Part shown: positions 13,635-17,584 of the stretch, piece after piece
Layout of the letters: every line of letters begins with the position of its first letter
Position numbering within the stretch: position 1 is the stretch's first letter
DNA from: a virus
DNA: 64,000 nucleotides
Strand: one strand, 5' to 3'
IMG/VR virus record: IMGVR_UViG_3300000095_000001
Notes under the pieces: model-generated
What the model saw: only the letters and a program-made list of their open reading frames with translations
What the model was told of the DNA's origin: nothing
The model's database searches: none
Program-made: the position numbers and the translations under genes

Positions 13635-14106
13635 ACTAGCTATTTATGAATACTCTCTATCTAACTTCTACAAAAAGATAAGTAGGAGAGATGATGAGTA
13701 TTCTTCTTACTTCTATCAGTTATCAGTAGATGAGAAGAAGCATAGTAAGATGTTGTTTAGTCTATTAAATAAGAGAGGATATGATGTACCTAATAAGTTC
13801 TTAGTAGAGCAGGTAATAATACAAGGTCAGGAAGTAAAGACTAATATAGAAGTAAGTAAGAGAAATGTACTGTTCTATTTAATCTTTAAAGGTAAGTCTG
13901 CCTCTAGTTACTCTACTAATGAGTTACTTAGTTATGTAAATAAAGGAGAGAAGATAGCTTATGTGTATTACTCAGTTCTCTTGTGGGTAGTTAAGTGTCT
14001 TAGTTATCTTACTCAAGATAAAGTATATGACTTAGATATAAATCTTCTGTCAACTATTAGAAGTGAAGAGAAGGAGCATAGTAGCTATGAAAGATTTAGT
14101 GTATGA
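13612..14106 (+). CDS. Ferritin-like (ExxH x2) protein
   Basis: SVDEKKHSKML and IRSEEKEH; start uncertain. Confidence 0.5.
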   Translation: MLSHIYYKLAIYEYSLSNFYKKISRRDDEYSSYFYQLSVDEKKHSKMLFSLLNKRGYDVPNKFLVEQVIIQGQEVKTNIEVSKRNVLFYLIFKGKSASSYSTNELLSYVNKGEKIAYVYYSVLLWVVKCLSYLTQDKVYDLDINLLSTIRSEEKEHSSYERFSV

Positions 14107-14349
14107 AGAGATGAGTAAGAGGTTTATAAAAGAAAAGTTAGTGAAAATTAATCTGAATCAAAAAGTTAAATTTAAACTTACTAAAATAGGGAGAGAATAT
14201 TTGAAAAAGAATAAACTATTAATGTGGTCAGATAAGGAGGGTTATTCTACTGAACAGCTTTGGGTAGTAATGGGATCTTTGGAGAAGCAATGCGATATCC
14301 GACTAGGAATACAGTGGTAGAACCAGATATGTTTTTAGTAGATGATTGA
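14087..14349 (+). pseudogene. Phage hypothetical protein with probable 1-nt deletion at about 14278-14280
   Basis: Track frame ends LWVVMGSLEKQ..; the -1 frame gives FGEAMRYPTRNTVVEPDMFLVDD* ending 14349. Confidence 0.45.
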
Positions 14350-14375
14350 CAAAATTAAATAGTTTGTGGTAGATT
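14346..14375 (+). promoter_or_regulatory. Sigma70-type promoter for the tRNA pair
   Basis: TTGACA (14346-51), 18 nt, TAGATT (14370-75) with extended -10 TGn; 8 nt from the tRNA 5' end. Confidence 0.75.
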
Positions 14376-14383
14376 AAATTTAT

Positions 14384-14457
14384 TCGGGAATGGAGCAACG
14401 GCTAGGCTCATGACTCTCCTAAAGTCAAAATTAGTAAGTTCGATTCTAACTCCCGAT
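14384..14457 (+). tRNA. Non-canonical tRNA, anticodon CCT (Arg/AGG)
   Basis: D stem GAGC/GCTC, anticodon stem TGACT/AGTCA with loop CTCCTAA, TTCGATT T loop; acceptor only 6 clean bp, A-A mismatch in T stem, no CCA. Confidence 0.55.
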
Positions 14458-14462
14458 TTCAA

Positions 14463-14544
14463 GAGTCAGTCCTCCTATTTAGTATAGGTAGCTGTCTGTA
14501 AAACAGTGGCTTCGGCATTGTAAGTGCGAATCTTACCTGACTCA
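14463..14544 (+). tRNA. Non-canonical class II tRNA-Tyr(GTA)
   Basis: Acceptor GAGTCAG/CTGACTC plus A73, anticodon arm GCTGT-CTGTAAA-ACAGT, variable arm GC-TTCG-GC, T stem GTAAG/CTTAC; atypical T loop TGCGAAT and D arm lacking GG. Confidence 0.7.
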
Positions 14545-14548
14545 TTTA

Positions 14549-17500
14549 TCATACTTCCTTCTTCTTCTTAGTCACGGTGATATACGGATATATATATACT
14601 AGGAAGCTAAGATTGGGGTCTAGCTGTACATTAGTAGGTTTTTTGATAGTTACTTGTTTAGTAACATCTAAGACTCCAGGTGTAAGAACTGTTTCTAAAT
14701 CTTGTACTTTATTTAATACGAAGTTATATTCACTATTAGCGTAGATTTGGTCAGTTGCATACTTTATGTATTGAGTAGCGTTAGTAGGTGGTACAAATTC
14801 TACATCTTTATAAGAGTCTACATCTACTTTAATAAACCCATCATATATAAATTGCGCCCAAAGATTATTAAACCATTGACGGGTATCTATACCTTTAACA
14901 CTTGAAGTAGGATAGCTTCCTGTTCTACTATTTTGAGCTAAGATAAACTCTCTTGTTTCTGAGTTATTACTATTTTGATTGCTGTAGAAAAGTGAGGGTA
15001 CTTCTAATAAAGGTGCGTTAATACCATCTAATCTTGCTGTAGTATATTGAGTCCAACGAGTTAGATTATAAGTGTAGAAGAAATTCAGTCCGTAGCTATC
15101 TAACATACTTTTTCTAGTAGATAAGTCTAAAGCAAATGAGTTATTCAAACTTATCAATTTGTTTCTAGCACTTCTAATATTAGAAGGTACATAAACTTTA
15201 GGTCTCGCAGTTAGATATTCAAAATAACTTTCTTTACTAACTTGATTGTTATTTACAGATGTAGTGTAATTTAAGTTTGAGTTTAATCCGTAACTTGTGA
15301 GAATTTGATAAATATTTCTGTCGTAACCTACTACTGAGTTAAGCCGTTTCTTTTCAGTATCTAAAATACTTCTATCCCATAACGACCACCAGCTAGAATT
15401 ACTTATCATTATTTGTCTTTGATTGTCTCCTGATACTACTGGTTTAGATAAGTATGTCCAGCTACTAACAAAAGAGTTCATAGGAGAAGTAATGTTACTT
15501 ACAATGATGCTTTTTGCTTGGCTGTAATTGTATTGCTCGTTGTTATTACCGGATATAGGATTATTTATTGATGTGTTATTAGTTGTTTGTAAAAGGATAG
15601 TATTAGCAGCATCTCTATCTCTATTACTTACTGTACCTCCGGTGTTATTGCTAAGACTTCCATAAGAAACAAAGAACTTCTTCTCAATATAAGATTTATT
15701 CCAAAGAGCAGAAGGTAGCAGTGAGGTGTCTAAACTGTTGTTTGTAGATTCTACTTGCCAGTTTTTAATTTTTATAGTTACGTATTTTCTATATTCCCAG
15801 CTTTGGTTAGGTGTAAAATCGTTAGCACTAAAAGCAGGATTACTTACCGTACTACCTTTACAATCAGTGTTGCTAAGTGTATTTTTAGGTTCTAATCCAA
15901 GTTTTAAATGTACTATTTGAGTTTTATTATCTAAGACTGTTAGATTTATAGTTCTTTGATAAAGGTTGTCTACTATTTGTTGTAACGACCTATTTCTCGG
16001 GTCTACCAGATTCCCTTCTATATTAGGAGTTACGTAGTTAGCAGAAGGAACATTATTTAAGACATATATCCAAACTCGAGGGTCAATCCTTAAGTCAATA
16101 ATATTTTTGTTGCAGTTTTCATAAAATTTAAAATGTTTAGCTTGGTCTTCCTCACTTACCGCAAAATTTCTTCTTAATCTGTTTTCTATATCTACTTGAG
16201 TTTCATTAGCTGCTAGGATAAAAGCATTATACATTCCACTAAATAAATCGCTAGCTCCTAGTTCGTATAATTTAATAGCTTCAGTTTTTTTACTGCTCCC
16301 CAACCAAATCTCAGCTTTGTGAGTAGATAGCTTCATATCTCTTTTTTTTAGTTTAGGGGGGCCATCAGGATTTCTGTTTCCTCCACTACCGTCATAAGGG
16401 CCACCATCTCCTAAATTGCTAGGACAGCCCGGAGTCCAAGGAAAGTAGTTAGGTGGTAGATTTCCGGGTATTTGATCTTCGTTTACTTCTAATATGTAGA
16501 AACCGCCAGGAGCCGTTGACCCGTTTAAGTATTGCTGTGGAAAATGCCTCTTGTACATAAATTGGTAGGGAAGATTTACCCAGCCATAAGTATGTCCCCA
16601 ACTATTATCGATAGAACCTACACTTGGTTGACCGGGAGTTTCTTGTCCAAATAAAGGTGCTTTACTGCTAATAAAACCTCTCGTGTCGCAATACCCAGCA
16701 GCTTGCATAGCAGGAGTACATTCATTAGTAAATCCGGGGAGAAAGCTAAATTCACATCTAAAGAAATTTCTAGTTATATTTGTTTGAGAATCAGTAGTAG
16801 AGGCTAATTCCCACCCCGCTAAGTGCATCCCTCCAGAGCATTCTAAAATCGTTCCATAACCAAATAGTTTTTTAAAGCTAGTTCCGTATTCATTGTCATG
16901 TGAAGTTAAAGCAGCTAACATTCTTTGTTCATCTTCAGCAGTAACTTTAGTAGAGAACATTTTCCAACCTAAATTAACCCCGTTTTCATCTTCAGTTCCA
17001 TGAGGAGTTTTAGCATCTCTACCTAAATCATCACTAAAACAATCATTTAAAGAGTTATAAGGTTTATAAGGTAATCCGGTATAAGATGTTCCTCCAATAG
17101 TTTCTTTAGCTGCGTAGTTGCATCTTTCATAAGCTCCGACAAATTGAGTACATGAACTTCCTTTCCTAATCCAAGTAGATTGCAATTGACTAGGAACAGG
17201 AGAACCTGTATCTACTAACTTGACAAATAAATAGAAAACTTCAATATCTGAATCAGTATATTCAATAATTTTCTTATCATCTACTGGTTTAGTTTTTCTT
17301 ATCTGAATAATTCTTTCAGTTACCTGCTCTGCTGCTTTAAACGTAACTGCCTTGTATTGACCGTCGTTAGAATCTTTTACTACTAAAACTTCCCCACTAG
17401 AATCCACATTAACAGATAAAGCTTGAATAGTTTTCCCCGTCTCAGTATTTCTAACGTTAATCTTGGTTCCAATTCCACCGTTAAGAGCATAGCCAATAAA

Positions 17501-17584
17501 AGCTGTATTATTTTCTAATAACTTAAGAATTTTCTGGACAACTAAATCTTCAGATATCGAGCCTGGGAGATAATCATCATTCAT
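14549..17584 (-). CDS. Large tail-associated protein (tail tip or receptor binding, unassigned)
   Basis: 1011 aa, N/T/S rich, last gene of the tail cluster. Confidence 0.5.
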   Translation of the reverse strand: MNDDYLPGSISEDLVVQKILKLLENNTAFIGYALNGGIGTKINVRNTETGKTIQALSVNVDSSGEVLVVKDSNDGQYKAVTFKAAEQVTERIIQIRKTKPVDDKKIIEYTDSDIEVFYLFVKLVDTGSPVPSQLQSTWIRKGSSCTQFVGAYERCNYAAKETIGGTSYTGLPYKPYNSLNDCFSDDLGRDAKTPHGTEDENGVNLGWKMFSTKVTAEDEQRMLAALTSHDNEYGTSFKKLFGYGTILECSGGMHLAGWELASTTDSQTNITRNFFRCEFSFLPGFTNECTPAMQAAGYCDTRGFISSKAPLFGQETPGQPSVGSIDNSWGHTYGWVNLPYQFMYKRHFPQQYLNGSTAPGGFYILEVNEDQIPGNLPPNYFPWTPGCPSNLGDGGPYDGSGGNRNPDGPPKLKKRDMKLSTHKAEIWLGSSKKTEAIKLYELGASDLFSGMYNAFILAANETQVDIENRLRRNFAVSEEDQAKHFKFYENCNKNIIDLRIDPRVWIYVLNNVPSANYVTPNIEGNLVDPRNRSLQQIVDNLYQRTINLTVLDNKTQIVHLKLGLEPKNTLSNTDCKGSTVSNPAFSANDFTPNQSWEYRKYVTIKIKNWQVESTNNSLDTSLLPSALWNKSYIEKKFFVSYGSLSNNTGGTVSNRDRDAANTILLQTTNNTSINNPISGNNNEQYNYSQAKSIIVSNITSPMNSFVSSWTYLSKPVVSGDNQRQIMISNSSWWSLWDRSILDTEKKRLNSVVGYDRNIYQILTSYGLNSNLNYTTSVNNNQVSKESYFEYLTARPKVYVPSNIRSARNKLISLNNSFALDLSTRKSMLDSYGLNFFYTYNLTRWTQYTTARLDGINAPLLEVPSLFYSNQNSNNSETREFILAQNSRTGSYPTSSVKGIDTRQWFNNLWAQFIYDGFIKVDVDSYKDVEFVPPTNATQYIKYATDQIYANSEYNFVLNKVQDLETVLTPGVLDVTKQVTIKKPTNVQLDPNLSFLVYIYPYITVTKKKKEV

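Follow-up and report, generated by a model that had tools for sequence, protein, structure and literature searches.

Transfer RNA genes are common in phage genomes, and their purpose is debated between codon supply and escape from tRNA-cutting defences. The described systems that stand closest to the locus treated here bear on both sides of this debate. A strongly promoted phage tRNA-Tyr rescues SP15/T5-type phages from retron-Eco7, and overexpressed host tRNA-Tyr rescues them too (PMC11555353). The type III CRISPR-associated Schlafen nuclease CbCash cleaves the UUC motif of the T loop directly on the 5′ side of U55, a cleavage that is lost when either U54 or U55 is substituted (PMC13462974). 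In addition, cyanobacteria have long tRNA arrays, and 23 of the 26 array tRNAs of Anabaena are aminoacylated in vivo (PMC8421152). Here we describe two tRNA genes in a stretch of viral DNA of 64,000 nucleotides (IMG/VR virus record IMGVR_UViG_3300000095_000001), which as a whole is called the window. With a probability of about 0.7 the two genes are read as a self-contained, promoter-driven cassette in a variable slot of the phage genome, which would supply tRNA during infection. As such the cassette belongs to an ordinary class of phage cargo and is real and conserved; what is unusual here is its array-type ancestry, the bases A18 and G55 on an otherwise well-kept tRNA-Tyr, and an initiator-like tRNA with a shifted anticodon.

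The window is AT-rich (about 32% G + C) and phage-like, with portal and capsid genes and an open reading frame (ORF) of 3118 amino acids (aa). The best cultured relatives of its capsid protein are those of the Pseudanabaena phages PA-SR01 and Pam2 (137–143 kb), at 28% identity. The phage is placed in a family with genomes of roughly 130–150 kb whose hosts are most likely filamentous cyanobacteria of the Microcoleus/Oscillatoriales type; the basis for a filamentous cyanobacterial host consists of the tRNA affinities described below and this capsid similarity. ARAGORN and Rfam analyses together give two tRNA genes, and no more, in the 64-kb window. They lie together with their promoter in a block of about 205 bp between an upstream ORF of 85 aa (14063–14320, plus strand, from the ORF list) and a convergent gene of 1011 aa (14549–17584, minus strand), which forms the downstream edge of the slot. 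The spacer between gene 1 (14383–14458) and gene 2 (14463–14544), both on the plus strand, is 4–5 nt. The 5′ strand of the T stem, GTAAG, is common to both genes and neither encodes CCA, so in these respects, as in the approximately 5-nt distance between the genes and in every other sequence detail that it listed for them, the original prediction can be read directly in the DNA. The absence of CCA is unremarkable because most tRNA genes of Microcoleus vaginatus, as called by ARAGORN, also lack it. An integration site (attP or partial tRNA) was rejected as an identity of the block because both genes have their full length and a promoter, and recoding or a suppressor tRNA because of the long ORFs under translation table 11 and the sense anticodons.

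A near-consensus promoter had been predicted ahead of the tRNA pair, and a promoter scan found its boxes, a −35 box TTGACA (14346–14351, plus strand) and, after an 18-nt spacer, a −10 box TAGATT (14370–14375), which together have 10 of 12 consensus matches; with the TG upstream the extended −10 box, TGGTAGATT, occupies 14367–14375. The motif TTGACA-N13–16-TGnTAnnnT occurs at a single site in the 64-kb window, where 0.16 sites are expected by chance, and at least one site was found in 15 of 100 shuffles, so the single occurrence alone is not significant. However, a promoter stands in the same slot in six relatives, 8–10 nt before the first tRNA gene, with TGnTAnnnT kept and with a −35 box that is unchanged in five of the six and reads TTGATA in the remaining one. 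The promoter is judged real because both its boxes and its distance are conserved across these six relatives.

The gene of 1011 aa was used to find related loci. Its homologues number about 50 and come mostly from metagenomic contigs, the longest of which are around 150 kb, and more than a dozen of their neighbourhoods were compared. Neither the slot DNA (megablast and blastn) nor the 1011-aa protein (tblastn) gave a match among cultured-phage records. The slot and its promoter are conserved while the tRNA cargo is swapped between related phages: Met(CAU) and Pro(UGG) are found in L006, CAU and Asp in L007, Trp-like and Gly in L008, and an odd tRNA-like gene together with a Trp-like, Gly or CAU gene in L009, L011 and L029. 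The slot of other relatives contains no tRNA, but an HNH ORF in one and a GIY-YIG ORF in another; these homing-endonuclease ORFs follow directly after the 1011-aa gene (L023, 5542–6258, and the P0006 Logan contig). In L014 there is no cassette, and the match to the region of the 85-aa ORF runs straight into the match to the end of the 1011-aa gene (alignment A6); because both flanks are joined directly there, the cassette is a clean indel of about 205 bp. Like the window, the relatives have only a few tRNA genes per contig.

Several members of this cargo deserve a description of their own. The odd gene in the first slot position of L029 (5600–5680, minus strand), L011 and L009 is a conserved tRNA-like gene with the acceptor strand GUCUGGA and the T loop UUCGAUU. 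It has an anticodon loop of 8 nt in L029 and L011 (AACCAUAA) and of 12 nt in L009, it is called by neither ARAGORN nor Rfam, and it may represent a tRNA of the frameshift type or one that does not decode. The Trp(CCA)-like tRNAs of L008 (6110–6181, minus strand) and L009 (5463–5533, minus strand) have imperfect acceptor stems and T loops with G55, UGCGAAU and UGCAAAU, respectively; they reach 45–55 bits with Rfam, are missed by ARAGORN and have an array-type Microcoleus tRNA-Trp as their nearest match. As for the CAU tRNAs, the window uses AUA heavily (24 per 1000 codons, about one third of the Ile codons), so that the CAU genes in the slot of the relatives may be lysidine-type Ile tRNAs rather than Met tRNAs. 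The CAU, Trp-like and Gly genes of the relatives are closer to the array copies of M. vaginatus than to its housekeeping tRNAs.

Gene 2 is a class II tRNA-Tyr(GUA) of the cyanobacterial array type. It matches RF00005 with 35.3 bits (gathering score 29), which corresponds to E = 7.7e-6 on a 451-nt stretch and to 0.0011 on the whole window; it is missed by ARAGORN and, because of the speed filters, also by a fast-filter Rfam run on the whole window at the gathering threshold. The low score is largely a trait of the family, since the array copy has 35.7 bits. From the sequence and the Rfam alignment, gene 2 has G1:C72, A73, the anticodon G34 U35 A36 (GTA, 14498–14500, in the loop CTGTAAA) and a long variable arm (14508–14519) made of a 2-bp stem and a UUCG tetraloop. 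G1:C72, A73, the GUA anticodon and the long variable arm are the identity features of bacterial tRNA-Tyr. Single tRNA sequences folded by minimum free energy did not return the cloverleaf, and this folding was left out of the evidence.

Homologues of gene 2 that are called as tRNA-Tyr by ARAGORN are present in L012 and L015, at another genomic position. Compared with the L012 gene, gene 2 differs at ten paired positions, and these make up five compensated pairs (2:71, 5:68, 49:65, 50:64 and 51:63) with none broken. The loop of the variable arm is UUCG in gene 2, GUAA in L012 and UUAAA in the array genes, of which the first two are stable tetraloop types. Furthermore, in the family alignment of 15 sequences, the window included, 98.8% of the cells are paired and seven pairs are doubly changed, which is matched by none of 500 shuffles. 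The proposal that the Tyr stems are under selection is thus borne out: the covariation check that went with it was run, and the stems proved to be compensated, with no decay against L012. Gene 2 is very probably a functional tRNA-Tyr, judging from this pattern of substitutions.

The origin of gene 2 is indicated by its D arm and its anticodon arm. The 18-nt word of the anticodon arm was found at 81 places when one genome per prokaryotic species was searched, among named records mostly in Microcoleus, Tychonema and other Oscillatoriales, and the cyanobacterial matches have in common a D arm of the gene 2 type, with an extra nucleotide in the linker of positions 8–9 and a CCU(A)/(U)RGG stem. In M. 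vaginatus HSN003 the tRNA-Tyr of this type belongs to a 6-kb array with about 30 tRNA genes and is distinct from the housekeeping tRNA-Tyr; gene 2 is 70% identical to this array copy, and its three best matches do not include the housekeeping tRNA-Tyr. The anticodon stem-loop of gene 2 is that of the array copy, and the 7-nt loop CUGUAAA is also that of the housekeeping copy. The gene had been predicted to be non-canonical, and of this the D loop without GG and the T loop TGCGAAT are real, whereas the odd D arm is explained as an inherited trait, since the family of Microcoleus-type array tRNA-Tyr has it. In IMG/VR the anticodon-arm word gave only L027, a distant Tyr gene, and L026, whose contig is that of L012, while the exact word of the T arm gave non-homologous tRNAs and some coding matches but no relatives of gene 2.

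The two altered loops of gene 2 lie in the elbow of the molecule. The D loop (A18 G19 at 14481–14482; G18 G19 in homologues, alignments A2 and A4) reads UUAGU instead of UUGGU, and the T loop (14525–14531, with G55 at 14526) reads UGCGAAU instead of UUCAAUU. Gene 2 therefore lacks the canonical G18 and U55 but has G19, U54, C56 and A58. Every distinct tRNA that ARAGORN called in all DNA gathered for this analysis, 878 in total, was sorted by these positions: 835 have U55 with GG, 15 have U55 without GG, 3 have G55 with GG and 22 have G55 without GG (Fisher P = 6e-31, for a table that contains many orthologous genes and whose 878 tRNAs are not independent events). Besides these classes there are two tRNAs with C55 and two whose T loops are not 7 nt long. 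We read the two altered loops of gene 2 as a single, coordinated replacement of G18 by A and of U55 by G. However, one CAU family of the arrays has A, C or G at position 18 in members with G55, so the elbow contact may be relaxed and not strictly re-paired.

Every G55 tRNA among those examined comes from a phage cassette or a mobile tRNA array. The set includes Cys and Ile tRNAs with encoded CCA from the tRNA array of a phage that is apparently unrelated. From cyanobacterial arrays it includes Leu, Glu/Gln and CAU tRNAs, and from the relative L029 a CAU tRNA. The dispersed housekeeping tRNAs of M. vaginatus HSN003 are canonical in 47 of 47 cases, all with U55 and GG and none with G55. All array Tyr copies collected have U55, in contrast to G55 in gene 2. 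A tRNA-Cys in the array of another phage has exactly the 17-nt T arm of gene 2, and the Trp-like gene of L008 agrees with this arm in 15 of the 17 nucleotides. The Tyr homologues of gene 2, in contrast, share only about 9 of the 17. Because this T arm is nearer to those of other tRNAs than to those of the Tyr homologues, it suggests that T arms are exchanged between tRNA genes as modules. In the literature searched, no description of A18/G55 or of U55G as a natural tRNA variant was found.

Other tRNA-like elements have this arm or this base. On a 127-kb IMG/VR contig, L003 (9450–9660, minus strand) is a tRNA-like gene that carries the T arm of gene 2 but has its D region separated from this arm by a long insert, and it adjoins a suppressor tRNA with the anticodon CUA. 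A short CCA-ended element in L005 (6660–6745, minus strand) has a GTAAG-TGCGAAT-CTTAC arm and no normal D or anticodon arms. Moreover, the 6-kb array on the M. vaginatus HSN003 chromosome (L121, 2527700–2533700) includes the G55 tRNAs Gln-CUG and Leu-GAG, a gene called “Tyr(AUA)” and several low scorers.

Gene 1 is a member of an initiator-like CAU family that has the anticodon CCU (CCT at 14418–14420). ARAGORN calls it tRNA-Arg(CCT) at 14384–14457, and 14383–14458 is the register consistent with its family (alignment A5). Against RF00005 (gathering score 29 bits) no match is listed for it at E ≤ 10, and the only match listed from the clan is tRNA-Sec with 19.4 bits; its orthologue in L007 is called by ARAGORN and is likewise unreported by Rfam. 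In the family register, gene 1 has a U1×U72 mismatch, a 3-nt linker AUG and the D stem GAGC/GCUC. The shifted acceptor register noticed earlier is therefore real, but it is inherited and not an oddity of this phage, because the mismatch, the linker and the D stem are shared by the family and the first two are found in cyanobacterial array genes. Ten homologues, two from phages and eight from cyanobacterial arrays, have the AUG linker, the GAGC/GCUC stem and, without exception, the anticodon CAU, which makes CCU the derived state, reached by a point change (A35 to C). The T stem GUAAG/CUAAC contains one A·A mismatch, which is specific to the copy in the window. Positions 1 and 72 are mismatched in 10 of 11 family members, and A11:U24 is invariant. 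A 1×72 mismatch and A11:U24 are hallmarks of bacterial initiator tRNAs, as are CAU and, at the lower end of the anticodon stem, three consecutive G:C pairs, and gene 1 is without these other features, having the anticodon CCU and the anticodon stem UGACU/AGUCA. The family alignment has 92.6% of its cells paired and ten doubly changed pairs, a result reached by none of 500 shuffles. These characters place the ancestor of gene 1 among the initiator-like tRNAs with CAU, of the type that cyanobacterial arrays contain.

By the neighbour gene, with 79% amino-acid identity, L007 is the closest relative of the window. Gene 1 and the gene at the same position in L007, whose anticodon is CAU, are identical at 66 of 74 positions (89%), whereas the synonymous third positions of the neighbour gene are 62% identical, so gene 1 was constrained for most of the divergence. 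By manual reading of alignment A5, most of the eight differences arose on the branch of the window, with which relaxed constraint fits as well as remoulding does; two of the three branch-specific stem changes improve pairing (C2·A71 to U:A and U31·G39 to U:A). The identity set of Escherichia coli ArgRS comprises C35, U36 and A20 in the D loop, and C35 is a major arginine determinant; gene 1 has C35 and U36, and the base after the GG of its D loop is C. Codon demand does not explain the switch to CCU, as AGG is a minor codon in the window (5.7 per 1000, against 27.8 for AGA and 24.2 for AUA). It is about equally likely that gene 1 is a remoulded reader of AGG, probably charged with arginine, and that it is a recently crippled copy.

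In the reading preferred here, the host RNA polymerase would start transcription within a few nucleotides of the 5′ end of the first tRNA, the dicistronic transcript would be cut by host tRNA-processing enzymes, and CCA would be added post-transcriptionally. Gene 2, presumably a descendant of a tRNA-Tyr of the cyanobacterial long arrays in whose elbow A18/G55 has replaced G18/U55, would be tyrosylated and would read UAU and UAC, which amount to 41 per 1000 codons in this AT-rich phage. Gene 1 would go back to an initiator-like CAU ancestor that gained CCU by the change of A35 to C. The cassette would thus be a tRNA supply for an AT-rich phage that grows on a host of higher G + C content.

Against this supply reading stand three others. 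The first supposes that the G55/A18 elbow resists a host tRNase, or another host factor, that reads the T loop or the elbow, and that the strong promoter floods the cell with such tRNA so that translation survives. By analogy with CbCash, which needs U55, the loss of this base (UGC in the T loop of gene 2, not UUC) may spare gene 2 from a T-loop tRNase; likewise, a strongly promoted phage tRNA-Tyr beats retron-Eco7 (PMC11555353), and the restriction of G55 to phage cassettes and mobile arrays, away from every housekeeping tRNA examined, would suit such a role. Of 81 genomes sampled from the family of M. vaginatus HSN003, 44 encode Schlafen-domain proteins, but the HSN003 genome itself has no Schlafen domain, and two Schlafen proteins that were looked at are fusions with response regulators, encoded beside histidine kinases, and not Cash proteins. 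No nuclease is linked to the inferred host, most slot tRNAs of the relatives keep U55, and in the retron case overexpressed host tRNA-Tyr rescues as well, so that a variant structure is unnecessary. The original prediction had proposed nuclease-resistant replacements or decoys; an escape in the anticodon loop, however, is not seen, as CUGUAAA is unchanged from the loop of the host, and nothing was found in support of decoys. Counter-defence through the elbow, a narrower form of that proposal, is accordingly rated as improbable. A broader form of the idea is held to be just as doubtful: A18/G55 might mark a mobile class of tRNAs in phage cassettes and long arrays that stays usable when nucleases cut UUC T loops, with the tRNA-Tyr serving counter-defence and the initiator-like gene 1 caught midway in its remoulding to a reader of AGG. 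As a separate observation, L166 (1468–2526) and L170 (1495–2520), both from the M. vaginatus family, encode a receiver domain fused to a Schlafen (AlbA_2) domain and adjoin a histidine kinase; they look like Schlafen proteins under two-component control.

The remaining two readings are decay and a use away from the ribosome. One or both genes could be left over from the turnover of tRNA genes at a recombination hot spot and give no working tRNA. In favour of this, the slot cargo does turn over, some relatives have odd tRNA-like genes there or lack a tRNA, two relatives have a homing-endonuclease ORF in the slot, and in gene 1 the anticodon is unique, the T stem contains the A·A mismatch and an RF00005 match is not listed. 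But decay would hardly leave the stem changes of the Tyr gene all compensated, its tetraloops stable and its identity features intact, gene 1 far more conserved than synonymous sites with two of three branch-specific stem changes towards better pairing, and the promoter intact and conserved; we regard it as unlikely, somewhat more so than counter-defence. Least probable is that the G55 tRNA is charged and then diverted to another aminoacyl-transfer or signalling role, for which there are analogies in a non-proteinogenic staphylococcal tRNA-Gly without the G18/G19–U55/C56 contacts (PMC4574755) and in the non-canonical roles of array tRNAs that the authors of PMC8421152 left possible. Gene 2, however, retains G19 and C56, the G55 tRNAs span many amino acids and also occur inside full decoding sets, and no transferase gene is linked to the cassette. 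The supply reading is kept.

Whatever its use, the locus clearly links phage tRNAs by descent with the mobile tRNA arrays that filamentous cyanobacteria carry. The A18/G55 switch is well controlled by close homologues and removes a base that is required by one published antiviral tRNase, and gene 2 (A18/G55) forms with the Tyr genes of L012 and the arrays (G18/U55) a natural pair for the comparison of nuclease sensitivity, modification and decoding.

Among the nearest known systems are the trn operon of PCC 7120 and the other cyanobacterial L-arrays (PMC8421152). The cassette genes are closest to array copies and share with them the odd D arm, the 1×72 mismatch and the 3-nt linker. The arrays also hold G55 tRNAs, and homing endonucleases are linked both to arrays and to the phage slot. 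However, the trn operon arrays have 20–40 genes and stress-induced repression, whereas the cassette has two genes behind a constitutive-looking promoter of its own and encodes no CCA, and gene 2 has G55 where the array copies of tRNA-Tyr have U55. The evasion of retron-Eco7 PtuAB (PMC11555353) likewise involves a phage tRNA-Tyr(GUA) directly behind a near-consensus promoter, but there the rescue is by abundance and not by altered structure, and neither a retron nor another nuclease for tRNA-Tyr is known for this host. The anticodon-loop escape tRNAs of mycobacteriophages (PMC10264068) and the T5 tRNA-Lys that acts against PARIS (PMC11464382) are, like gene 2, phage isoacceptors unlike the housekeeping copy; gene 2 differs from its counterpart in the elbow and stems and has the loop CUGUAAA unchanged. 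The staphylococcal tRNA-Gly (PMC4574755) also lack canonical contact bases of the D and T loops, but they lose G19 too and serve cell-wall synthesis, whereas gene 2 keeps G19:C56 and its amino acid is tyrosine. The endonuclease ORFs in the slot of two relatives fit an endonuclease-driven turnover as in the tRNA region of phage T4. Finally, gene 1 resembles the alloacceptor shift known as tRNA remoulding in that a point change of the anticodon, A35 to C, creates C35. In early work, tRNA-Met given arginine anticodons reportedly gained arginine acceptance. Gene 1 differs from such cases in its initiator-like body and in having C, not A20, after the GG of the D loop.
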